Source of the DNA: an uncultured Clostridia bacterium
Lineage (GTDB): Bacteria; Bacillota; Clostridia; TANB77; CAG-508
Length of the DNA stretch: 64,000 nucleotides
Direction: 5' to 3'
NCBI GenBank assembly: GCA_934167095.1
Contig: CAKPKE010000004.1
Coordinates: forward strand, 7,033 to 71,032
The position numbers and the translations under genes are program-made. The notes beneath the pieces are model-generated. The model made no database searches. It saw only the letters and a program-made list of their open reading frames with translations, and was not told the origin of the DNA. Positions 25,620 through 50,653 of this stretch are shown here, one piece after another. Numbering within the stretch: position 1 is the first letter of the stretch; each line of letters opens with the position of its first letter.

Positions 25620-26411
25620 ATGGAATTTTTTGATTCGCATGCACACTACAATGATGAACAATTTGATAGCGATAGACAGCAAATAATAAACAAAACTTAT
25701 GAAGATGGTATAACAAAATTTATGTGTGCTGGATATAGCTTGGAATCATCAAAAAAAGCATTAGAAATTGCAAATAGTTATGATTTTATTTATACAATAT
25801 CAGGAGTTTCGCCAAATGATGTAAAAGCAACAATTGATGAAACTAAGCAAGATATAGAAAAAATAAAAGAATTAATTGTAAATGATAGAAAAGATAAAAA
25901 GTCTAAAATAGTTGCAATAGGCGAAATCGGACTTGACTACTATTGGAATAAAGAAAACAAAGAAATACAAAAATTTGCATTTATAGAACAAATAAAACTT
26001 GCAAATGAATTAAATCTTCCTATTGTTATACATACAAGGGAGGCAATCTTGGACACGATAAATATTTTAAAAGAATATAATGTAAATATGAAAGGTGTAT
26101 TTCATTGTTGTCAGCAAAATGTACAATTAGTACAAGAAGCATTAAAATTAGGATTTTATATTTCTTGTGCAGGACCATATACTTTTAAAAATGCAAAAAA
26201 TTCTGAAGAAATTATAAAATTAATACCAGACGATAAATTACTAATCGAAACAGATAGCCCATATCTAGCTCCAGAGCCAAAAAGAGGAACTAGAAACGAC
26301 TCAAGAAACGTAAAATTTATAGCTCAAAAAATAGCCGATGTAAAAGGCGAAACACTAGAGAAAATAGCACAAAAGACGTATGAAAACGCATGCAAAATTT
26401 TTCAAATTTGA
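25620..26411 (+). CDS. tatD: TatD-family metal-dependent hydrolase/DNase
   Basis: FDSHAHYND.., AIGEIGLDYYW.., PIVIHTREA.., GVFHCC.., LLIETDSPYLAP. Confidence 0.9.
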   Translation: MEFFDSHAHYNDEQFDSDRQQIINKTYEDGITKFMCAGYSLESSKKALEIANSYDFIYTISGVSPNDVKATIDETKQDIEKIKELIVNDRKDKKSKIVAIGEIGLDYYWNKENKEIQKFAFIEQIKLANELNLPIVIHTREAILDTINILKEYNVNMKGVFHCCQQNVQLVQEALKLGFYISCAGPYTFKNAKNSEEIIKLIPDDKLLIETDSPYLAPEPKRGTRNDSRNVKFIAQKIADVKGETLEKIAQKTYENACKIFQI

Positions 26412-26469
26412 CAATAAAGCCAAAAAATGTTATAATGAACATGTTGTTTCAAAGGAGGAACGAAATTTT

Positions 26470-38391: not shown

Positions 38392-41361
38392 ATGAATATA
38401 AAAAATAGACTACAAAAGATAACGATAATATTAGCAACATTTTTAATATTATTCAACTTTATGGGTGGAAATGTAGCATTTGCTGAATATGGAGCAGCGG
38501 CTTCTGATCCTGGCAAGGATAGTTCAATGCAAACATCAGGAGATAGCAAGGGCTCAATAGCAAGTGCGACAAAAGGTACAGGAATATCAGAGGCTGATAT
38601 CATTGCCAAAATAAAAGAAAAAGCAAATGTAGATGATGAAATGGCAAGAAAAATCTATAATGCAGCAACAGAGGATACAACTAAAATCACAGTAACATGG
38701 TCTACTAAAGGATATGCAAATAATGGTACAAAAACTTTAAAAAGTGTAGAAATATATTTTACTGGTGAAGAGCTAGAACAAATAAGAAATGGAACATATC
38801 AACCTAATTTAGCCACAAACCAAGAAAATGTACAAGATAATGTTCAAAGGGATTATTGGGATCCTGAAGCAAAAAATGATGGGAATTTTCTTGAAAGCTT
38901 ATTAATTACTCCAACTGTTGGATTAATTACTACATGTGTAGATGGCGTATATAAAGTATTTCAAAACTTTATATTAGGAACAAACACAAGCATAGGAAGC
39001 ACAATAACTTCAGCACTTCCTTGGGCAGGAAATCATATAGTAATAACAAAAGAAGACGGAAAGTCACAAGGATTAATATCTGATGGAGCTTCATTAACAG
39101 AGGAGGAAAAAAATTCTGCAATTCCAATTCAATACAGTCAAATTTATCATGTACCTACTATGATTTTAACTCCAGCAGCTATATTTGAAGGAAAAGTTGC
39201 TGCTTTAAATGGAAACTTTTTTGATACAGATGATGTTAATAATGAAATTGGTGGCGAAAATATGTCAACAGTTACTCAATTAAAATCAACTGTTAGTGGA
39301 TGGTATATAACATTAAGAAACATTGCTGTAGTTGGATTATTATCAGTACTAATTTATATAGGCATTAGGATAATTATAAGTACAAGTAATAGCGATAAAG
39401 CAAAATATAAACAGTTCTTCATGGACTGGGTAATTGCATTATGTTTAATATTCTTTATGCATTATATAATGTCATTCATAATGACGGTGACGGATTCAGT
39501 TACTGCTATGATGGCATCAGATCAGGGAGAGGATGGAAGCTATCAAGCAAAAGAAGTTGTGGTGCAATTTGAAAATGACGGTGATGGTAATGCAAGATAT
39601 ATGTATACATCTTTTGCTGGGGTTGCAAGAATGAGATTACAATATGCTTCACCGGCAACAAAACTAGGTTACATGGTAATGTATATAGCTTTTGTTGGAT
39701 ATACTGTATATTTCTCAGTAATTTACTTAAAGAGAATTTTATATTTATCATTCTTTACAATGATAGCACCAATGGTAGCATTAACTTATCCGCTTGATAA
39801 AATTAAAGATGGTAAAGCACAAGCTTTTAACTTCTGGTTTAAGGAATATATTTTTTATGCGATGCTACAACCATTACATTTATTCTTATATACAGTGCTT
39901 GTTAAATCAGCAATGACACTGGCTTCTACTAACATGATATATGCAATAGTAGCAATGGCATTTATAATACCAGCAGAAAAAATTGTAAAGAGTATGTTTG
40001 GAATAAGAGGACAAACAGAAGGAAATCTAGGTGGCTTAATGGGATTATCTGCAGCAACGCACATGTTCCAATTATTAAGAAAACCACCAAAGATGCCACA
40101 AGGTGCTGGTAAAGGTAATGGTGGAGAAAGTGAAGGAATTACTGATAATCCTAATAGTGGAAAATTTGATAGTTTATTTACAACGCCATCAACTGCATCA
40201 AATGATAATAGTGGATTCACAGCTGGTTCAATACCAGAAGTAGATGATTCAACAAGATATAATGAGCAACAACAGTTAGGAATAGCTGAGCAGAAAAGAG
40301 CTCAAATTGCTGCTGAACAAAAGAAAAAGGAAGAAGAAGAGGAAGAAAGAAACAGAAGGGCTTTATCAAATGGACAATTACAAAATCCTGGAATATTAGG
40401 AGAAAATACTTCTGGAATTTCTACTAAAGAACAAGAAAAACAACCTAGAATAAAACAATTACACAACAATGCTCGAACTGCTATTAGAAAGAGATTTGTT
40501 GCAGCTGGAGGCTATAAGGGACTTGCTATGAAAGCTGGAAAGGGACTTGCAAAAGGTTATATGACAGCAGCAGGAACCGTTGGGCTTGGAGCAGTTGGAC
40601 TTGGACTTGGTATGGTTGGAGGAGATTTAAATAATGCTTGGCAAGGACTTGTGGCAGGAGCTGGTGTTGGTGCATATGTTGGAAATAACGTAGGAAATGG
40701 AGTGTTAAATACAATTTCTGCAACAGCCAGTGGAAAAAATGCTTTAGGTTCTTTTGCATCAGAAGTATGGAATGGTGAAGAAGAAAGCATAAGATTAAGA
40801 GAAGAAAATGCCTATATGAATGACCAAGCTAATATTGCAAGAATTCAAGCAGAACATGGAGATTGGGATTATGAACAAATTCAAAACCATGCTAAGAGAG
40901 AATATAATATGCAAAGAGATTCAGGAGTACATGATACAAAACTTGCAAATAAGGCAATTAAACTAGAAGATGAATTCATTAGTCAAGGAAGTACTCCAGC
41001 AGATGCTCATGAGCATGCATATAAGATATTACAAGGAACAAAAGTTTATGATAAATCAATGTTCTATAATAAGAAGAAGCTAAATGAAGCAAGAGAAACT
41101 ATGGTTGAAAATAGAATGGCTTCAAAGAATGTATCAAGAGAAGAAGCTGTAGCACATACTAATAAAATCTTTAAGGAAATTGGACAAGTTTATGGTGTTG
41201 GAAAAGTTACAGATATGCCTGTTAGGACAACTGCAACGGCTACAAAGAAAACAGATGATACATCAAAAGGAAAAACTAGAACACAGCAAGAACTAGGTGA
41301 TGTAAGAGGAGCTAAAACTACAACAAAAATAAGAAGAACTAGTAATAAAAATGGTAAGTAA
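38392..41361 (+). CDS. VirB6/TrbL-like polytopic T4SS channel protein with large N- and C-terminal extensions
   Basis: AAGGAGG RBS and signal/anchor. At least 6 TM helices at about aa 300-560 (WYITLRNIAVVGLLSVLIYIGIRIII, FFMDWVIALCLIFFMHYIMSFIM, LGYMVMYIAFVGYTVYFSVIY, LSFFTMIAPMVALTY, IFYAMLQPLHLFLYTVLV, IYAIVAMAFIIPA). The C-terminal roughly 430 aa hold a charged coiled coil (EQKKKEEEEEERNRR) and a Gly-rich hydrophobic block (GTVGLGAVGLGLGMVGG..GAGVGAYVGNNVGNG). Confidence 0.6.
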   Translation: MNIKNRLQKITIILATFLILFNFMGGNVAFAEYGAAASDPGKDSSMQTSGDSKGSIASATKGTGISEADIIAKIKEKANVDDEMARKIYNAATEDTTKITVTWSTKGYANNGTKTLKSVEIYFTGEELEQIRNGTYQPNLATNQENVQDNVQRDYWDPEAKNDGNFLESLLITPTVGLITTCVDGVYKVFQNFILGTNTSIGSTITSALPWAGNHIVITKEDGKSQGLISDGASLTEEEKNSAIPIQYSQIYHVPTMILTPAAIFEGKVAALNGNFFDTDDVNNEIGGENMSTVTQLKSTVSGWYITLRNIAVVGLLSVLIYIGIRIIISTSNSDKAKYKQFFMDWVIALCLIFFMHYIMSFIMTVTDSVTAMMASDQGEDGSYQAKEVVVQFENDGDGNARYMYTSFAGVARMRLQYASPATKLGYMVMYIAFVGYTVYFSVIYLKRILYLSFFTMIAPMVALTYPLDKIKDGKAQAFNFWFKEYIFYAMLQPLHLFLYTVLVKSAMTLASTNMIYAIVAMAFIIPAEKIVKSMFGIRGQTEGNLGGLMGLSAATHMFQLLRKPPKMPQGAGKGNGGESEGITDNPNSGKFDSLFTTPSTASNDNSGFTAGSIPEVDDSTRYNEQQQLGIAEQKRAQIAAEQKKKEEEEEERNRRALSNGQLQNPGILGENTSGISTKEQEKQPRIKQLHNNARTAIRKRFVAAGGYKGLAMKAGKGLAKGYMTAAGTVGLGAVGLGLGMVGGDLNNAWQGLVAGAGVGAYVGNNVGNGVLNTISATASGKNALGSFASEVWNGEEESIRLREENAYMNDQANIARIQAEHGDWDYEQIQNHAKREYNMQRDSGVHDTKLANKAIKLEDEFISQGSTPADAHEHAYKILQGTKVYDKSMFYNKKKLNEARETMVENRMASKNVSREEAVAHTNKIFKEIGQVYGVGKVTDMPVRTTATATKKTDDTSKGKTRTQQELGDVRGAKTTTKIRRTSNKNGK

Positions 41362-41377
41362 ATCTTACCATTTTTTT
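41351..41377 (+). terminator. Internal terminator of the T4SS-like locus (stop codon in loop)
   Basis: ATGGTAAG / CTTACCAT 8-bp stem, loop TAAAT containing the TAA stop of the VirB6-like gene, then TTTTTTT. Confidence 0.7.
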
Positions 41378-41466
41378 ATACCACAAAATATCCATAAAAC
41401 TATGGAAACTTAGCGCTAGTTATGTTATTATATAATTATGTAATAGTACGTAGGAGGAAATGAATA

Positions 41467-42429
41467 ATGCATAAACTAATATCATTATGGAACCAAAATA
41501 GAAAACTTTTTTTAGCAATAATTGGAATAATAATTGCTATATTTATAGGAATTCAACTATTAAACCAAATGGCAAAAAATGATTTAAAAGAAAAAAATAA
41601 CGGAAATTCTGGTACAGCTACAAGCCAAACTAATACTGTTATTGATAAGTCTGCAAATACAACACAAACAGATAGTATAGGAAGCAATACAAATATATCG
41701 GCAGAAACAGCTAATGCAAATCAAACAATAATTAAAAATTTTGTAGATTATTGCAATAATGGAAATATTACAGAAGCATATAACTTATTAACAGAAAAGT
41801 GCAAAGCCGAATTCTATACAACACAAAACGATTTTAAATCAAAATATGTAGACAGAATTTTTACTAGCAAAAAACAGTTTAATTTGCAAAATTGGTATAC
41901 ATCAGATTTAGGAAGTACTTATAAAATTACATATATTAATGACATTTTAGCATCAGGAAAAGTTGAAACAAATATAGAAGATTATATAACAGTTTCAAAC
42001 AATAAAATTAACATTAATAGATTTATTGATAAATTAGATGTAAACAGAACTTCAAGCAATAAATTTGCAAAAATCACATTAGTGAGCAGAGAAATATTTG
42101 ACGAATACGAGATATTCAATTTACAAGTAACAAATTTAACAAACACAACTATAATGATAAACAGACATGCTGATAATGGTAAAACTTATGCAACATATAA
42201 TGACAGTAAAACATATAAAGCAATAATCAGTGAAACATATTCTGGAAATTTAACAATCGAAGGAAATCAAACTAAAAATGTAAGCATAAAAATAAACAAA
42301 ATGTATAATGGAAATTATTCACTAAGTAAGCTTACATTCACTGATATTATAAATAATAAAAACGACTTTGATAAAATAACCAATAAAGATGCCTACACAA
42401 ATGTATCAAGTATAGAAATAAATTTATAG
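41467..42429 (+). CDS. N-terminally anchored T4SS-associated protein (possible VirB8/TcpC-role, NTF2-like guess)
   Basis: AGGAGG RBS, TM LFLAIIGIIIAIFIGIQLL, then IIKNFVDYCNNGNITEAYNLLTEKCKAEFY... The family assignment is a guess from position and architecture. Confidence 0.35.
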   Translation: MHKLISLWNQNRKLFLAIIGIIIAIFIGIQLLNQMAKNDLKEKNNGNSGTATSQTNTVIDKSANTTQTDSIGSNTNISAETANANQTIIKNFVDYCNNGNITEAYNLLTEKCKAEFYTTQNDFKSKYVDRIFTSKKQFNLQNWYTSDLGSTYKITYINDILASGKVETNIEDYITVSNNKININRFIDKLDVNRTSSNKFAKITLVSREIFDEYEIFNLQVTNLTNTTIMINRHADNGKTYATYNDSKTYKAIISETYSGNLTIEGNQTKNVSIKINKMYNGNYSLSKLTFTDIINNKNDFDKITNKDAYTNVSSIEINL

Positions 42430-42442
42430 GAGTATAAAAGGC

Positions 42443-45400
42443 ATGGGAGATAATGATAAAAATATAAAGAAAAAAATAATGTCTAAAGCTATAAAAAAAA
42501 TAGCAAAAAAAATAGTAATTGGAGCATTAATTGCAGTAATACCAGCAGCATTATTTTGGGCTGTAATAGAAGGGCTATTAGATGAACTAAGTAATTCAAT
42601 AAATAATTTAGGAAGCACATATACATCAATTACAAGTAGTATTAACTCTGATTTATCAGAAGGAATAAACATTACAGATGATAAGATTGAACAATTAATA
42701 AGTGTATTACAAAAAAACGGAATATCACTACAATCAGTATTTTTAAGTGGTGACACACTTGGACTAGATGAAACTTCGCCAGAATATAAAACTGAATTAT
42801 ATAAATATTTAAGACAATTCTTACTAGCACAAGTTTGTACACAATATCCTGACTTTGGAATAACTGAAGATGAAACACATTATAATGGAATAATAAAAAT
42901 TAGAAGAACTGCAAGCACAGCAACAAGCGTAGATGAAGCTGTTGACATGACCTACGTTAAAAAAGATAAGTTTGAAGCTATGGTAGAGGCAGTTAACACA
43001 AATTCATTAGAAAATTCGACATTATCTGGAGAATATGAAACCGATACAAAAAATGTTGATATAGATTATACTGATGGAACAAAAATTAAATCTACAATAA
43101 TAGTTCCAGCAGGACTAAGCGATAGTATTCCACTTGTTGTAATGTGCCATGGATTCACAGGTGCCAAAGAAGGAGACGAGCATCACTTTACAACATTAGG
43201 AACATTGCTTGCATCAAATGGAATAGCAACAATAACTATTGATTTTCCTGGTTGCGGACAAAGTGATGTAGACAGCTTAAAATATACTTTAAGCACAATG
43301 CAAGGATATGTTGATACCGCAATTGAAAAAATGAAGTCAGACTACAATATAGATGAAAGTAAAATTGGTATAGTAGGCCATTCAATGGGTGGTAGAGTTG
43401 CATCATTGTATTTAGACAAAGTCTCAGCTGCTGCTTTATGGGCTCCTGCCAATGGAGATGGTCTAAAAGGCTTAGAATTCTTAGGAAACTATGATGAGCT
43501 AAACAATACAGCTCAAGAAAATGGAAGCGTTTCTAGTGGTTGGGATTATGCATCAACAGCTGTAAATTTTGATGGTAAATTTACACTAAGCAACACTTTC
43601 TTTAATGAAATGTCTGAGTCACATCCAAATGAAAAAATAAGTAGCTTTAGTGGAAAACTATTTGTTGCTTATGATTCTGAGGATAGAGATGGAACAAATA
43701 ATGTAATTAGCCCAGAAACAGTACAATCTGTAAAAGATGCTTTACCAAGCGGAGCTGAGTGGAAAGAATATGAGGACAACCATAATTTTATAAATACCGG
43801 TTCAGCCTTAATTTTAGATACAGCAAACTTTTTATGCAATGCTTTCCTAGGACATGATGCAGGAAGAAGTACTGATGCTGTTAATTTATTAGATGGATAT
43901 ACTTTAGAACAGTTAAGAAATCTAATACAAACTGTATATACAATCGATAACAATGGAAATTTATATTTTACAAATAGAAAAATTACAGATACAACAAGCG
44001 AAGCTGGAACTACTGCAGAAACGACTACAAGAGAATATGTAGTAACAGTTCAATCTGTAAATTATAAAGATGCCGTTGAAAAATACTCAATGCCAATGCA
44101 GGCAAGTTTAGCTTTATGCGAAGGAACACAAAATCCACAATATGTATATGAATTTATTGATGATTTTGTAAGAGCTGGACATATTGATATAACTATAATG
44201 GATAGTCTATATGTGGATACTTATAATAGTTGGTATGATTACCAATATTCGCAAAGAGTAGAAGTATGGACTAAGAAAGAAACTACAACGTATGATAAAT
44301 GGGATACAAAACATGAATATCCACATACGAGTGTGACTTGGCCAAAAACTAAAGATGAAACAACTAATATACAGGTAAATAATAGACATCATAACACAAT
44401 AATAATAAATACAATAGAATCAACAGCAAAAGTAACTGATGTAGATACATGGATGGCAAAAGTAAATTTTGAATTTTCAAATCAACAAAATATGGTAGAT
44501 TATCCTCTAGGAGAAGAAACTGTTGTAGATAATAATGCAAACCTTCCGGATTCTATACCAGCAAGTAGCACAACCTCAAATGAGGATACAAAAACTACCA
44601 CAACGTATTCTTATGATACATCAAATAGTAACAACTGGTGTCACTGGACTCAAACACAAAATATTGTACATAATGAGTGGGTTCAAGACAGTGTAGAAGT
44701 AGATGAGGTTGCAATAGACCAAAAAGCCCAAGCAATTGTTGCTCAATGGGATGAACAATTTTCTGTTCCAAATAGCACAGCAACAGCAGCACCAGGCCCA
44801 ATGATTAAAAATAATGAAGGAATGTTCTTGGAAATGCTAAATAATGAATCGACTCAAAAACAACAAGAAATATTCAAAAATTTACTATATATTTATACAA
44901 ATGGATTATATGGAAGTAACGAAAAAAATAATGATATTTACAAAGATAATGACCTAAAAACTGTTACAAATGACGATATTATTGTAAATGTAACAAAATC
45001 GGTTGCAAGACTTGTTTTATCAAAAGACCAATTAAAAACTGCAATTAAAGCATGCTATTCAGGACAAGCTCAAGAAAATTTATTGGGCGCATTAGATGCA
45101 TTTTATTCAATACAGCAAAACTACAAAGTAAATGGAACATTTGCAATAGCAGTTACGATAGCAGAATCAAGTGGTGGAACAAACTGGGCCGCAATAGATG
45201 AAAAAACACATAATTGGATGAGTGTACAAGGATCATTTAGCGGAAATTCATATACTGATGGTAATGGAACTAAGTGGAGAAAGTATACAAGCTTTTCACA
45301 AGCAACAAGAGACTTTGGAAAACTTATAAAGAATAATTATTTCTCTGAAGGAAGAAATACAGTAAAAGAAGTAATTGAAAAGTATAACCCTGGTGGAGCA

Positions 45401-46069
45401 GATGCTGAATCAGATTTGATAATTAAAGAAATGCTAAAAATGTATAGTGCAGTAGGTGTTATATTAGATGACTCAACTTCTTCAGATAATAATTCATGGT
45501 CTGGTGGTAATGGAAGTAGTAATGGTGGCTCTTCAATAAATGGAGAAAACGGTGATTTAGCAGGTAGCACAGGAGAGGGATTCTGGAACACTTATACTAA
45601 AGGTGGAAAAACATATAAATTATATTATCAAAATTATATGGGAACATATAACAACTGGGGTACAGGAACAAATGTAATGTGTGTTGCAACAGCTTATGCA
45701 ATTGTTAATTCTGCAGCAGGAGGAGGCAATCCTTTGGCATACTGGCAAGATGGCGTTGGTGGCGTAAATGGTGGCTTATCAAGATGTAGCAGAGATCAAG
45801 ATACAATAATGAATTATGTTGATAGTGGAAATCCTGTTGTAGTATATTCATACTTTGGAAATGCATTTTATGGCTCACCTCATGCTATTGTATTGTTGGA
45901 TGCAAGGAACACATCAGGAACAAATGAAGTATTTGTAGTAAATCCATATTATACACCAAACGGTTCTGGCGGACAAAAAGCAGGCGGTTGGATGCCACTA
46001 AGTACAGTTTTAGGATATCCTCAAGCTACAACAAATGCATTTGGTTCTTGCGGAGTACTATTAAGATAG
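42443..46069 (+). CDS. Multi-domain membrane-anchored hydrolase: alpha/beta-hydrolase + GH73-like glucosaminidase + papain-like Cys peptidase (VirB1-role candidate)
   Basis: TM KKIVIGALIAVIPAALFWAVI. The alpha/beta hydrolase has VVMCHGFTGAKEGD.. and the nucleophile elbow GIVGHSMGG (nt 43376-43393). GH73-like segment FAIAVTIAESSGGTNW..HNWMSV..WRKYTSFSQATRDFGKLI (about nt 45080-45330). C-terminal Cys..His peptidase NVMCVATAYA..GSPHAIVLLD (about nt 45640-46069). Confidence 0.65.
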   Translation: MGDNDKNIKKKIMSKAIKKIAKKIVIGALIAVIPAALFWAVIEGLLDELSNSINNLGSTYTSITSSINSDLSEGINITDDKIEQLISVLQKNGISLQSVFLSGDTLGLDETSPEYKTELYKYLRQFLLAQVCTQYPDFGITEDETHYNGIIKIRRTASTATSVDEAVDMTYVKKDKFEAMVEAVNTNSLENSTLSGEYETDTKNVDIDYTDGTKIKSTIIVPAGLSDSIPLVVMCHGFTGAKEGDEHHFTTLGTLLASNGIATITIDFPGCGQSDVDSLKYTLSTMQGYVDTAIEKMKSDYNIDESKIGIVGHSMGGRVASLYLDKVSAAALWAPANGDGLKGLEFLGNYDELNNTAQENGSVSSGWDYASTAVNFDGKFTLSNTFFNEMSESHPNEKISSFSGKLFVAYDSEDRDGTNNVISPETVQSVKDALPSGAEWKEYEDNHNFINTGSALILDTANFLCNAFLGHDAGRSTDAVNLLDGYTLEQLRNLIQTVYTIDNNGNLYFTNRKITDTTSEAGTTAETTTREYVVTVQSVNYKDAVEKYSMPMQASLALCEGTQNPQYVYEFIDDFVRAGHIDITIMDSLYVDTYNSWYDYQYSQRVEVWTKKETTTYDKWDTKHEYPHTSVTWPKTKDETTNIQVNNRHHNTIIINTIESTAKVTDVDTWMAKVNFEFSNQQNMVDYPLGEETVVDNNANLPDSIPASSTTSNEDTKTTTTYSYDTSNSNNWCHWTQTQNIVHNEWVQDSVEVDEVAIDQKAQAIVAQWDEQFSVPNSTATAAPGPMIKNNEGMFLEMLNNESTQKQQEIFKNLLYIYTNGLYGSNEKNNDIYKDNDLKTVTNDDIIVNVTKSVARLVLSKDQLKTAIKACYSGQAQENLLGALDAFYSIQQNYKVNGTFAIAVTIAESSGGTNWAAIDEKTHNWMSVQGSFSGNSYTDGNGTKWRKYTSFSQATRDFGKLIKNNYFSEGRNTVKEVIEKYNPGGADAESDLIIKEMLKMYSAVGVILDDSTSSDNNSWSGGNGSSNGGSSINGENGDLAGSTGEGFWNTYTKGGKTYKLYYQNYMGTYNNWGTGTNVMCVATAYAIVNSAAGGGNPLAYWQDGVGGVNGGLSRCSRDQDTIMNYVDSGNPVVVYSYFGNAFYGSPHAIVLLDARNTSGTNEVFVVNPYYTPNGSGGQKAGGWMPLSTVLGYPQATTNAFGSCGVLLR

Positions 46070-46079
46070 GAGATTGGTT

Positions 46080-47204
46080 ATGAACAAAAAGAAAAATATT
46101 GTAATAATTGCAATGATAATATTAACTATGGCAATTATTGCTACACTATTAGTAATATTAAAAACTACCAAACAAAATAGTGAAGACGAAGAAAATGTAT
46201 TAATGGAAGGATACGAAAATTTAAGTGTAATTACAGTAGAAAAAGTTAAATCAAAAACAATCTTACAACTTTTAATGAACTGCTTAAATGAAGACTATAT
46301 ACGAGAAGCATACAAAGTGAATACACAAGACATTGAAAAATATGCTGTTTATGTAAGAGAAAGTGCTGAAAATAAATTTTATATTGTTTACTTAGACTAT
46401 GATAATAAAGCATACAAAACTGATGAAATAAATGAAGAAACATATAAAAAAATAAAAAATGGACAAATAGATCAAAAATATTTAGAAACAAAAAGTGTAG
46501 AAGCAAATGGTCAAAATAGCTTTTTGGTAACAAATATGACAGACGAAAAAATAGCTATTATGTATTATAATGTAATCAAAAATTTAATAGTTAATGATAA
46601 TGTAGTGCTTTATAGCATATTAGACGAAAATTATAAAAATGCAAAATTTGCAGACCAATCAACATTCTATAATTATTGCAATAATATAAAAAGCAGTGTT
46701 GCAGACTCTGAAATAAGAGAATATAAAATAGATACTGTAAATGGTGTAGAACAGTATACTTGCATAGATAATAATAAACATACATTTATAATTAAAGTAA
46801 CATCTGCATTAGATTATACAGTTATGTTAGATGACTACACCGTTGAAAACAACACAGAAGTAGAGGAATATAATTCTTCAAATGATACTACAAAAATCTC
46901 TAAAAATATTGATAAATTTATGAAAATGATAGTAAATAGTGATTATCAATCTGCCTATAATTTACTAGATGCAACATATAAAGCAAATAATTTTCCTACT
47001 TTAGAAAGCTATACAAATTTTATTAATTTGCATTTTTATAGAACTGGATATTATACAATCGATTCGATAACGATGCAAGGAAATTACTATGTAGTAGCAG
47101 TAACTACAAAACAAACAGCGACTGTTGCTTCTTATAGTACTACAAATCAAATAATAATGAGCTTAGGCGAAGGTACAAGTTTTACAATGTCAATAGCAAA
47201 ATAA
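46080..47204 (+). CDS. N-terminally anchored T4SS-associated protein (paralogue-like of 41467 gene)
   Basis: ATG 46080 behind AGGAGA. TM IVIIAMIILTMAIIATLLVIL. The C-terminal module IVNSDYQSAYNLLDATYKANNFPTLESYTNFI echoes GNITEAYNLLTEKCKAEFYTTQNDFKSKY of the 41467 protein. Confidence 0.35.
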   Translation: MNKKKNIVIIAMIILTMAIIATLLVILKTTKQNSEDEENVLMEGYENLSVITVEKVKSKTILQLLMNCLNEDYIREAYKVNTQDIEKYAVYVRESAENKFYIVYLDYDNKAYKTDEINEETYKKIKNGQIDQKYLETKSVEANGQNSFLVTNMTDEKIAIMYYNVIKNLIVNDNVVLYSILDENYKNAKFADQSTFYNYCNNIKSSVADSEIREYKIDTVNGVEQYTCIDNNKHTFIIKVTSALDYTVMLDDYTVENNTEVEEYNSSNDTTKISKNIDKFMKMIVNSDYQSAYNLLDATYKANNFPTLESYTNFINLHFYRTGYYTIDSITMQGNYYVVAVTTKQTATVASYSTTNQIIMSLGEGTSFTMSIAK

Positions 47205-47449: not shown

Positions 47450-48709
47450 ATGAAAAAATTAAAAATTATATTTATATTATTAATAACTGTAAGTTCACTA
47501 GTATCCACAGTTTGTGCAGATGATGTGGATAATGAAGTCGAAAATGATATAGAAAATCAAATAGTAGAAGCATCAGCTCAAGTTCAAAATTTTCCAGATA
47601 TTAATTCAAGAAGATATGTTGTTTTTGATAGAACATCAAAGCAAGTATTGTTTGGAAAAAATGAAAATATAAAAGGTGCGATGGCATCTACAACAAAAAT
47701 AATGACTGCAATTGTAGTATTAGAAAATGCTAATTTAGATGAAGAAGTACAAGTAAGTGCAAAATCTGCTGGGACAGGAGGCTCAAGGCTAGAGCTAAAA
47801 ACAGGAGATAAAATTACAATTAATAATTTACTTTATGGATTAATGCTAAGGTCTGGAAATGATGCAGCAGTAGCTCTTGCTGAAAGTGTAGGAGGTAGTG
47901 TTTCAGGTTTTGCAGATATGATGAATGAAAAGGCAAAAGAACTAAATCTTACTTCAACACATTTTGTAACACCTCATGGATTAGATAATAGTGAGCATTA
48001 TACAACGGCAGTTGAGCTTGCAAAAATAGCAGATTATGCAATGGAAAATGAAATGTTTTGCAAGATTGTTGGTACAAAAATCGCAACAATTTATATAAAC
48101 GGATACGAAAAGCAAATCGCAAATACTAATGAATTATTAGGAAATTTAAATGGTGTTGTTGGCATAAAAACAGGCTTTACAAATAATGCAGGAAGATGTT
48201 TGGTAACTGAAACTAAAAGAGGAGATATGGACATAATTGTGGTTGTTCTTGGTGCTGATACAAAAAAGTTTAGAACACAAGATAGCGTAAAATTAATAGA
48301 ATATACTTATTCAAATTATGAAATGGTGGATGTTGAAAATTTAATAAAAAACGAATTTGAAAATTGGAAAAATATAAATTTGAAGAGAATAAAAATAATA
48401 AAAGGAAAATCTAATATAATAAATTTAAGATTATCTGAAATTGAAATAAAGCAAATGGCAATTAACAAAAGTGACATAGATAAAATTAAGTTTGAAACAA
48501 ATTGCATGACAATGTTAGATGCCCCAATTAATGAAAATACTAAGATGGGAACAATGCAAATATCTCTAAACGGAAAAATAATTGAATCAGTAGACCTTTT
48601 AACAAATGAGGAAATAACTAAAAAAGAATGGAAAGACTATTTTAAAGAACTGCTAAAAATATTTAGAGTTCAAACGAACTATTTTGAAGCAATAAATTTA
48701 GGGTTATGA
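47450..48709 (+). CDS. D-alanyl-D-alanine carboxypeptidase (S11, PBP5/DacB-DacF type)
   Basis: Signal peptide. SxxK (MASTTKIMTA), SxN (RSGNDAA), KTG (IKTGFTNNAG). C-terminal PBP5_C-like domain. Confidence 0.9.
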   Translation: MKKLKIIFILLITVSSLVSTVCADDVDNEVENDIENQIVEASAQVQNFPDINSRRYVVFDRTSKQVLFGKNENIKGAMASTTKIMTAIVVLENANLDEEVQVSAKSAGTGGSRLELKTGDKITINNLLYGLMLRSGNDAAVALAESVGGSVSGFADMMNEKAKELNLTSTHFVTPHGLDNSEHYTTAVELAKIADYAMENEMFCKIVGTKIATIYINGYEKQIANTNELLGNLNGVVGIKTGFTNNAGRCLVTETKRGDMDIIVVVLGADTKKFRTQDSVKLIEYTYSNYEMVDVENLIKNEFENWKNINLKRIKIIKGKSNIINLRLSEIEIKQMAINKSDIDKIKFETNCMTMLDAPINENTKMGTMQISLNGKIIESVDLLTNEEITKKEWKDYFKELLKIFRVQTNYFEAINLGL

Positions 48710-48732
48710 CAGAATATATTGTGCCGATTTGA

Positions 48733-48873
48733 AAAAATGTGATTCTTTTATGTTAAAACGTTGCAAAAATGTGATAAAAATATTAAAAAAGCTTGCAAAA
48801 ATGTGATGAAAACGTCAAAAAAATCTGCAAAAATGTGATAAAAGAGCCGAAAAACTTTACAAAAATGTGATTT
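48733..48873. repeat. Iteron-like array: five direct repeats of (T)GCAAAAATGTGAT at an exact 32-bp period
   Basis: AAAAATGTGAT starts at 48733, 48765, 48797, 48829 and 48861. The 16-18 nt between the cores are not conserved. Confidence 0.9.
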
Positions 48874-49160
48874 AGATGAATTTTTAAATCTGTATCCAAT
48901 GAAAATAATGATAATGAAATATCTATAAGATTTTCTAATAATAATCTTTGCAAAGATGGAAAAATAATTAACATTCCATTATTTATGATAGAAAATATTG
49001 AAAAATTTATTTAAATAGGATAGTAAAAAATTAAATGCAATTCTGTAAAGTAAATGTAAGTTGTATGAGAAAAAGCAAGTTTTTTAAGCAAAATAATACT
49101 TATAAACTTGTTTTTTCAATTGACTTAAATTTATTTTATGGAATTTATTTAGTTATAAAA

Positions 49161-49206
49161 TTGACAATTATACCGATTTTGTATATAATATAGGTATGAT
49201 TGTCAA
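49161..49206 (+). promoter_or_regulatory. abiE promoter with overlapping inverted-repeat operator
   Basis: TTGACA (49161-66), 17 nt spacer, TATAAT (49184-89). The inverted repeat TTGACAATTATACC (49161-74) / GGTATGATTGTCAA (49193-206), 13 of 14 complementary, brackets the -10. Confidence 0.65.
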
Positions 49207-49225: not shown

Positions 49226-49807
49226 ATGGATAATATAGAAAAAATTAAAGAGTTAGTAAAAAATAATAATGGTATATTATTAGTAAAAGATGCACAAAAA
49301 AATAATATTCATAGACAATATATAAAACAATTAGAAGAAAAAGGATATTTGAAAAAAGTGTCAAAAGGAGTGTATGTAGAAAAAGATAAAGAAATAAATG
49401 AATTTTTTATCTTAGGACAAAAATATAAAAAAGGAATTTTTTCACATAATACAGCATTATATTTCTATAATCTAACAGATAGAACACCAATAAAAATAGA
49501 TATGACATTTCCAAGCTATATAACTGTACATGATAAATCTATAAATGTTCATTATATAAAAAAAGAAAAGCATCTTCTAGGATTAAAAGAAATGAAATTA
49601 CAAGATGGAACAACAATACAAATATATGATATGGAAAGAACGATATGTGATATTATTAGAGATAGAAATAAGATAGATCCACAAATATTTAATGATGCTA
49701 TAAAAGGATACATTAAGAAAAAAGAAAAAAATCTTATTTTACTATATGAATATGCAGAAGAATTTAAAATACAAAATATATTGAGGAATTATATGGAGGT
49801 GCTATAA
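49226..49807 (+). CDS. abiEi: AbiEi-family antitoxin / transcriptional regulator (type IV TA)
   Basis: AGAGGGTG RBS. N-terminal winged-helix pattern ..NNNGILLVKDAQKNNIHRQYIKQLEEKGYLKKVSKGVYV.. typical of AbiEi. Sits immediately upstream of AbiEii. Confidence 0.8.
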   Translation: MDNIEKIKELVKNNNGILLVKDAQKNNIHRQYIKQLEEKGYLKKVSKGVYVEKDKEINEFFILGQKYKKGIFSHNTALYFYNLTDRTPIKIDMTFPSYITVHDKSINVHYIKKEKHLLGLKEMKLQDGTTIQIYDMERTICDIIRDRNKIDPQIFNDAIKGYIKKKEKNLILLYEYAEEFKIQNILRNYMEVL

Positions 49808-50653
49808 TTGAAAAGAAATACAATGAGCTTTAAAGCTGTAATAAATAATATGGCTAAAGAAAATAATGTAGCAGCACAATCAGTTTTGCAAACATATATG
49901 TTAGAAAGATTATTAGAAAGAATATCAATTTCAAAATATAAAGATAATTTTATATTAAAGGGAGGAATGTTAATATCTGCAATGCTTGGAATTGATAGCA
50001 GAACTACAATGGACATGGATACAACAATAAAAGGCCTTCCATTAACAAAAGATAATATTACCAATATTATGGAAGAAATATGTAATATAGAAATTGACGA
50101 CAATGTGACGTTAAAAATTAACAAGGTTGAATTAATTAGAGAAGATGATGACTATGGTGGGTATAGAATTACATTTGAAGCAAAATATAATAATGAAATG
50201 CCAGTTACAATGAAAATAGATATTACAACAGGAGACAAAATTACATATAAAGAAATTGAGTATAATTTTACATTAATGTTAGAAGATAGAAAAATACAAA
50301 TATGGTCATATAATGTAGAAACTATAATTGCTGAAAAATTTGAAGCTATTGTAAAAAGAGGAGTGCTTTCAACAAGAATTAGGGATTATTATGATGTCTA
50401 TATGCTTGTAAGGACTCAAAGCAAAATTATTGATGAAAAAACATTAAAAGATGCGATAATTTTAACAGCACAACATAGAGGAACAAGTGAAATAATAAAA
50501 GAGTGGAAGAAGATAGTGGAGAAAATTGCAAATGATAGTGAAATGCAACAACAATGGAAAAGATATCAAAAAAATAATTTTTATGCTGAAGAAATAGAAT
50601 ATAAAGACTTAATAAATGCTATAAGTAAAGTAGGAGAAATATTTGATAATTAA
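49808..50653 (+). CDS. abiEii: AbiEii/AbiGii-family nucleotidyltransferase toxin (DUF1814)
   Basis: TTG 49808 behind GGAGGTG (alternative ATG 49823). ..LQTYMLERLLERISISKYKDNFILKGGMLI..SRTTMDMDTT.. NTase motif. Confidence 0.8.
   Translation: MKRNTMSFKAVINNMAKENNVAAQSVLQTYMLERLLERISISKYKDNFILKGGMLISAMLGIDSRTTMDMDTTIKGLPLTKDNITNIMEEICNIEIDDNVTLKINKVELIREDDDYGGYRITFEAKYNNEMPVTMKIDITTGDKITYKEIEYNFTLMLEDRKIQIWSYNVETIIAEKFEAIVKRGVLSTRIRDYYDVYMLVRTQSKIIDEKTLKDAIILTAQHRGTSEIIKEWKKIVEKIANDSEMQQQWKRYQKNNFYAEEIEYKDLINAISKVGEIFDN

Follow-up and report, generated by a model that had tools for sequence, protein, structure and literature searches.

The locus described here raises the question of what an iteron-like array of five phased direct repeats represents, located between dac and abiEi and apparently lacking a gene for a partner protein, and to which genetic system it belongs or once belonged. 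The window, i.e., the whole stretch of 64,000 nucleotides analyzed, corresponds to C4:7033-71032 of a genome comprising 35 contigs. Its relevant features are:

33443-47204: chromosomal T4SS-like cluster, before dac
47450-48709: dac, D-Ala-D-Ala carboxypeptidase (PF00768), upstream of the array
48729-48871, + strand: five-unit direct-repeat array, boxes composed of TTGA/TTGC/TTGC/CTGC/TTAC each followed by AAAAATGTGAT; the same word and phase occur upstream of DUF4143 genes in relatives and other phyla
48729-48743, + strand: unit 1, box TTGAAAAAATGTGAT
48761-48775, + strand: unit 2, box TTGCAAAAATGTGAT
48793-48807, + strand: unit 3, box TTGCAAAAATGTGAT
48825-48839, + strand: unit 4, box CTGCAAAAATGTGAT
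48857-48871, + strand: unit 5, box TTACAAAAATGTGAT, promoter-proximal (the equivalent unit supplies the -35 in intact relatives)
48875-48901, + strand: gene remnant 1, DEFLNLYPM, corresponding to codons ~140-148 of 435-aa relatives (VDFLNMYPM), from tblastn, blastn and translation
48898-49014, + strand: gene remnant 2, the last 38 codons (NENNDNEISIRFSNNNLCKDGKIINIPLFMIENIEKFI; codons 398-435) and stop codon, from tblastn and blastn
49226-50653: abiEi/abiEii, downstream of the array

The exact 11-mer AAAAATGTGAT starts at 48733, 48765, 48797, 48829 and 48861 of the + strand, i.e., with a period of exactly 32 bp, which is also returned by Tandem Repeats Finder and agrees with the five direct repeats reported in the initial annotation. 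The 13-mer proposed there as repeat (GCAAAAATGTGAT) is exact in only three of the five copies, since the core is preceded by GA in copy 1 and by AC in copy 5; the start positions quoted for it are actually those of the 11-mer. The conserved box comprises 15 nt, composed of (T/C)T(G/A)(C/A) and the AAAAATGTGAT core. The spacers, previously described as mutually unrelated, are indeed unalike in sequence, but share a common pattern, in that each core is immediately followed by a W-rich stretch and the next box preceded by an A-tract. The minimal ATG-TGA start-stop noted within each core is regarded as incidental. A genome-wide look at the motif, likewise suggested by the initial annotation, revealed 16 copies of AAAAATGTGAT in 1.44 Mb (35 contigs), five of them in the array, compared to 10 copies of the reversed control word; no further exact copy is present in the 64-kb window. 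The five-unit array is real and chance is excluded as its origin. A coding repeat was rejected, since 32 bp is not divisible by 3, and so was a small ORF, the 63-aa antisense ORF at 48783-48974 being without Pfam match. No Rfam 15 match at or above the gathering score was obtained; SAM-II within dac (20.5 bits versus a threshold of 44) is a chance match.

The array begins 20 nt past the dac stop codon (48707-48709) and ends 354 nt upstream of the abiEi start (49226), confirming its earlier placement just after dac and ~350 bp before abiEi. Beyond abiEi/abiEii follow rpsL, rpsG, fusA and tuf, while the chromosomal genes spoIIE, PBP, minC, tatD and those for M16 peptidases are located farther upstream. 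Among 30 window proteins scanned against Pfam, no Rep, Par (ParA/B/R), relaxase or integrase was found, in accordance with the earlier statement that no Rep or Par gene is nearby; a gene for a ParA/ParM/TubZ NTPase or a centromere-binding protein was likewise not found in the window. The T4SS-like cluster encodes a VirB4-like ATPase (36410-38377) along with three VirB2-like pilins, a VirB6-like membrane protein of 989 aa and a hydrolase/glucosaminidase of 1208 aa; genes for a relaxase, a coupling protein, Rep or an integrase were found neither with this cluster nor elsewhere in the window.

Expression of the neighbouring abiEi gene can be assigned to a perfect promoter of its own (TTGACA-17-TATAAT, 49161-49189), which is bracketed by a 14-nt inverted repeat (TTGACAATTATACC at 49161-49174 and GGTATGATTGTCAA at 49193-49206, 13 of 14 positions complementary). 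This inverted repeat (49161-49206) probably represents the AbiEi autoregulatory operator. Because abiEi possesses its own bracketed promoter, the array was rejected as AbiE operator; moreover, relatives carry the array without AbiE. The orphan array is part of a small defence islet beside AbiE.

An orphan was one of the two options considered in the initial annotation, which is right in spirit in so far as the partner gene is missing; what it overlooked are two remnants of a DUF4143 gene located directly downstream of the array (48875-49014). With blastn, remnant 1 matches the genes of four relatives at the corresponding position. Remnant 2 shares 71 % identity over 38 aa with a same-genus orthologue (tblastn, E 3e-16), and its DNA 77-82 % identity with relatives over ~120 nt (E down to 4e-26), reaching up to 90 % over 62 nt. 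Both remnants are in different frames and meet at a 5-nt AATGA microhomology (48898-48902), which occurs in relatives at codon 147-149 and again at codon 397-399. Only ~47 codons of the gene survive in the window; the AAA_14 P-loop and DUF4143 domains are both deleted, nine residues being left of the AAA module and otherwise the extreme C-terminus. Unit 5 retains a -35-like TTTACA, but no -10 follows in the window. Judged from its sequence, the DUF4143 locus is a pseudogene relic. The cassette was formerly located between dac and the AbiE module. A first deletion of about 465 bp, extending from just past box 5, removed the -10, the leader and codons 1 to ~139, and a second one of about 750 bp, with the AATGA microhomology at its flanks, codons 149-397, leaving behind five boxes and two short coding remnants.

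In eight independent metagenome contigs from several studies, the dac-abiEi interval has a length of 516 bp and is 100 % identical. It follows that the deletion is genuine and has apparently become fixed in this species. Metagenome look-ups by AbiEi and dac retrieved the deleted state only, and no intact allele at the dac-abiEi site was found in an exact 25-mer scan of metagenome contigs. As the intergenic region does not vary among the eight contigs (clonal sample), selection on cores versus spacers is not separable within the species. All five AAAAATGTGAT cores are perfect despite the destroyed gene, which is as compatible with a recent deletion as with continued constraint.

For identification of the missing gene's relatives independent of the DNA word, PF13635 was searched against 40 related genomes, yielding 70 DUF4143 genes together with their upstream regions. 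All seven members of the same-genus subfamily A (435 aa, ending with ...DGKI[IL]NIPLF.IE..EKFI) are preceded by an array of three TTGCAAAARTGTGAT units with a 32-bp period; the -35 (TTGCAA) is supplied by the final unit and followed 16-17 nt later by TATAAT (7 same-genus genes). The window boxes have the same sequence as these orthologous arrays (TTGCAAAARTGTGAT, seven same-genus cassettes). Between same-genus genomes, the 15-nt boxes are 87 % identical versus 55 % for the 17-nt spacers, and the cassettes reside in a different gene neighbourhood in each genome. An array of promoters was rejected, as the -10 follows only the last unit in intact relatives and none of the units in the window. A close relative from the same genus (L010; G018:C7, 1505-1580) carries a gene-less array, the three TGTGAT units of which, spaced by 32 bp, precede an unrelated ORF of 180 aa. 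Together with the two remnants, the comparisons with the same-genus cassettes show, at the level of sequence, that the array belongs upstream of a DUF4143/PDC-S01 cassette gene and that this gene is deleted here.

Other DUF4143 subfamilies display the same architecture with other words, i.e., AAAAACTTGCAA, TTCGTTTGAAAAATATGCAAT and AAAAACGGAC, and furthermore AGTCGTATC, TTATCTTTGATTTTGTG and ACGGATATGTG. The periods are 23 or 46 bp in the GPKWCGKT clade, and phased arrays are mostly absent from the ~400-aa GIRRCGKS clade; the array rule is therefore not family-wide. The genome containing the window harbours three intact paralogues with the words AAAAATGTGR at 33 bp (C13), TGCACAA at 46 bp (C7) and ATATCACGG at 23 bp (C8). 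Three words and periods in one genome cannot be explained by a single host regulator. The C13 paralogue (438 aa, helix NARSREY) possesses an array of three AAAAATGTGR units at 33 bp. Just upstream of the latter (genome G000, C13 about 26395-26460, - strand), two TTACGGATATGTGT units are found at 33 bp. Their word is that of the L181/L182-type DUF4143 subfamily, which is without gene in this genome, and the pair looks like a second orphan array.

A scan for AAAAATGTGAT-N21-AAAAATGTGAT across one genome per prokaryotic species yielded at least 119 loci, compared to a few matches at most expected by chance for such an 11-mer-N21-11-mer (rough estimate). According to the record labels, and as far as MAG taxonomy allows, the matches listed belong to Clostridia, Bacilli, Negativicutes, Bacteroidota, Spirochaetota, Fusobacteriota, Actinomycetota, Desulfobacterota, Chlorobiota and Pseudomonadota. 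A DUF4143 homologue is located directly downstream on the same strand in 89 of the 119 matches listed, and adjoins palindromic units in three more (92 of 119). Among these 119 matches, the arrays consist of two (22), three (77), four (15) or five (5) units, and the units are spaced by 32 bp (222 times), 33 bp (13) or 31 bp (6). The downstream ORF encodes a protein of 430-460 aa starting with M..L.RKID..L..WK...R.PLI.KGARQ.GKT, which is assigned to Pfam AAA_14 (E 5e-31) plus DUF4143 (E 2e-35) and, in case of the orthologue in relatives, matches PDC-S01 of PADLOC (E 8e-178).

About 18 of the 119 matches listed have no adjacent gene, some of them with N-terminal remnants, and the cognate-type gene is absent from four of 15 genomes bearing gene-less arrays, a count limited by MAG completeness. 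Arrays can hence persist, or act, without a gene in cis. In two Bacilli MAGs of different species (L011, L074), three perfect AAAAATGTGAT boxes at 32 bp are positioned ~110 nt upstream of proS, and neither genome yielded a cognate-type DUF4143 gene; this gene-less array is conserved and possibly exapted. Two Bacteroidales MAGs (L057, L127) contain a phased TGTGAT array directly before a non-DUF4143 gene. The one in L057 is a 403-aa ORF starting with MKDSSLDFSEYIRQEEPTKREAAYAW, presumably Fic-like, and L127 has a similar N-terminal sequence right after the array. Viral contigs gave 8 matches in 2.9 million, and only two of these eight have the gene; a phage origin of the array was rejected on these grounds. 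Three IMG/VR phage contigs (L201, L204, L207) carry two cccATAAAAATGTGAT units at 32 bp before unrelated genes, with no adjacent DUF4143. In L204, the units are followed by a TTGACA promoter and a gene with the N-terminus MRDAYDFAKYFIKNG, which we take to be DUF4065/Panacea-like.

The position of the arrays relative to the downstream gene was evaluated for 85 loci with a clear start codon, which is preceded by the end of the last core at a median distance of 24 nt. A -10-like hexamer begins -3 to +9 nt from the core end in 48 of these 85 loci. In 13 further loci, the last core is preceded by a Bacteroidota-type TAnnTTTG box at a distance of 11-18 nt, ten of these loci having it at -13. Thus, in most of the 85 loci, the core promoter includes the promoter-proximal unit, whichever promoter type the host employs. 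Its arrangement looks like that of an autorepression operator and argues against an RNA-level element.

The protein encoded downstream was modelled with AlphaFold2 using the same-genus orthologue (42 aligned sequences; pLDDT 89.7, pTM 0.89). The model displays an AAA+ module, a winged helix and a C-terminal nuclease fold in this order. The winged helix is predicted to consist of a helix (233-251), a short turn, a second helix (268-280) and a beta wing, with the motif G265-A-R-x-R-E-Y271 located where the predicted recognition helix (268-280) begins. A PDB sequence search provided no solved sequence homologue of the DUF4143 protein. In a fold search, the archaeal AAA+ ATPases 2fna and 2qen were nearest, followed by Cdc6/Orc1 on origin DNA (2qby). 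The G-A-R-x-R-E-Y motif is nearly invariant among proteins associated with the TGTGAT word. At the subfamily level, G-A-R-x-R/K-E/D-Y/F is present in all eight subfamilies with TGTG in their word and absent from five subfamilies without TGTG, which have GEKNRKY, GSSRKY, LKFSRY, ASKNVY or KTFSDY instead (Fisher about 0.003, kinship ignored); one further case is ambiguous (GARFKDY with the word AAAATGT). Within the TGTGAT-word proteins, GARNREY is combined with G at core position -1 in 108 of 156 units and GARAREY with C in 41 of 86 (G in 5 of 86), this N/A versus G/C contrast being essentially one clade contrast at the subfamily level with kinship ignored. The window boxes are of the C type, matching the remnant's subfamily. 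From this covariation, we infer that the word tracks the GARxREY motif of the predicted recognition helix. The encoded protein is the only factor travelling with the word across phyla.

In the preferred reading, to which a probability of about 0.8 is assigned, the five repeats constitute the upstream array of an AAA_14 + DUF4143 cassette (COG1373, PDC-S01), which consists of a single gene for an AAA+ ATPase, winged-helix and PD-(D/E)XK nuclease protein and has lost this gene by deletion; the boxes are most likely the operator of this gene's own product, and the array is a relic here. In intact cassettes, the boxes would accordingly serve as operator of the downstream gene. The winged helix of the protein would read the TGTGAT word, as suggested by covariation and co-occurrence, and protomers may line up head to tail, one per three helical turns and on one face of the DNA, in an Orc1/DnaA-type AAA+ assembly. 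With the last box positioned in the core promoter, occupancy would repress the gene. In the window, the array has neither promoter nor cognate gene and would represent a relic, at most occupied in trans by the C13 paralogue.

Alternatively, the orphan array might still be in use, i.e., functional as trans docking, titration or decoy site for the C13 paralogue rather than a neutral relic. Its five perfect 11-mers next to a destroyed gene would agree with such a use, as would the paralogue's A-R-x-R-E-Y and near-identical word and the recurrence of gene-less arrays, exemplified by the proS loci of the two Bacilli MAGs and the second orphan pair at C13. However, this is considered unlikely: the period is 32 bp here versus 33 bp in the paralogue's array, the eight samples are identical including the remnants and give no sign of selection on the cores, four of 15 orphan-bearing genomes are devoid of a cognate-type gene, and a recent deletion equally predicts perfect cores. 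One may speculate, as a long shot, that the array goes beyond an autorepressor site and is the resting platform of a sequence-programmed Orc1-like PDC-S01 ATPase-nuclease, and that gene-less arrays stay docking or decoy sites for paralogues, hence the perfect cores. The window array, the C13 pair, the proS-upstream arrays and the two-unit phage copies could then be examples, and the copies on phage contigs could act as anti-defence decoys.

Far less probable than either are three explanations which dispense with a DUF4143 operator. The initial annotation proposed a remnant of an integrated replicon or of a partition locus, and direct repeats on the same face at three helical turns, AT-rich and with no partner gene in cis, do resemble plasmid-type iterons or a partition centromere. 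While the underlying notion of a same-face array of protein sites was right in spirit (putative sites, with word and phase kept before DUF4143 genes), the replicon itself can practically be discarded, since Rep, ParA/B/R, relaxase and integrase were not found in a window with chromosomal genes on both sides (spoIIE, PBP, minC, tatD, rpsL-tuf), identical word and phase are elsewhere tied to DUF4143 promoters, gene remnants follow directly downstream, and matches in viral contigs are rare. Sites for a host global regulator, e.g., a CRP/FNR-type protein reading TGTGA, are very improbable as well. AAATGTGAT does equal a CRP half-site, as annotated, and the word is common to hosts of many phyla; yet the units are direct repeats, none of which has a TCACA partner at 6-nt spacing (TGTGA-N6-TCACA), so that the half-site is no pointer to a host regulator, the word changing by subfamily. 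Moreover, the word travels with the gene across phyla having different promoter types, three unrelated words and periods occur among the paralogues of a single genome, and the word covaries with the helix of the encoded protein. An equally improbable role is that of a mobility or recombination site, with the boxes as recognition or cleavage target in homing-like movement of the cassette. The varying neighbourhoods of intact same-genus cassettes, the PD-(D/E)XK nuclease fold of the protein (model; PMC3424549) and the existence of orphan arrays would be compatible with it, but the boxes are confined to the 5' side, overlapping the promoter, neither a second end nor a target-site duplication nor a recombinase was found, and the deletions here are ordinary, microhomology-flanked ones.

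For annotation, chromosomal iteron-like arrays of this kind should be taken to indicate DUF4143 cassettes, present or former, and defence islets rather than integrated plasmids. Arrays can outlive their genes. PDC-S01 is a frequent defence candidate without known mechanism or ligand. A large branch of its family, covering about ten phyla, is associated with one 11-nt word (AAAAATGTGAT) in a fixed three-turn phase inside its own promoter; with this word as defined DNA substrate and the GARxREY helix as target for mutagenesis, a biochemical characterization of the family could begin.

Among known systems, the iterons of plasmids such as P1, F, pSC101, R6K and RK2 are same-face direct repeats overlapping the promoter of the gene for the Rep initiator which binds them, and autorepression is expected for this gene. 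The arrays described here are alike in that several same-face direct repeats adjoin or overlap the promoter of the gene for a putative binder, but differ in that neither Rep nor origin nor replicon is involved and the partner is an AAA+ ATPase-nuclease, which is deleted in the window. Furthermore, the iteron period is ~22 bp, compared to 32-33 bp in DUF4143 arrays. Archaeal Orc1/Cdc6 on origin recognition boxes (2qby, the third-best structural match) and DnaA on DnaA-box arrays share the succession of AAA+ module and winged helix as well as arrayed sites (putative in case of DUF4143) beside the protein's own gene. Similarity to Orc1/Cdc6 (2qby) is restricted to the fold (13-16 % identity, TM 0.3-0.5); DUF4143 proteins possess a C-terminal nuclease domain in addition, and a replication role is not indicated. 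The best structural matches are SSO1545 (2fna) and PAB2304 (2qen), with Foldseek E ~3e-8 and TM 0.43-0.56; both combine AAA+ and a C-terminal winged helix, but have no recognised nuclease domain and no sequence-level similarity to the DUF4143 protein. To our knowledge, no DNA target is known for SSO1545 or PAB2304.

The closest counterpart is PDC-S01 itself (COG1373; AAA_14 PF13173 + DUF4143 PF13635), to which family the deleted gene belongs, the difference being that it is an uncharacterised candidate in the literature found and that only ~47 codons of it survive here. DUF4143 is a PD-(D/E)XK nuclease family (PMC3424549), and few candidate defence loci of gut and rumen genomes are as frequent as those of the very abundant PDC-S01 family; in a rumen survey, no other single defence-candidate locus was found as often as PDC-S01 (PMC13356809). 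In the DUF4143/PDC-S01 literature, no mention of an upstream repeat array or of a DNA specificity was found, and a full-text literature search for the repeat word returned irrelevant matches only. To the existing picture of PDC-S01, the window adds the cross-phylum constancy of AAAAATGTGAT, its link to the GARxREY motif, and an orphaned array with mapped deletion junctions beside AbiE.
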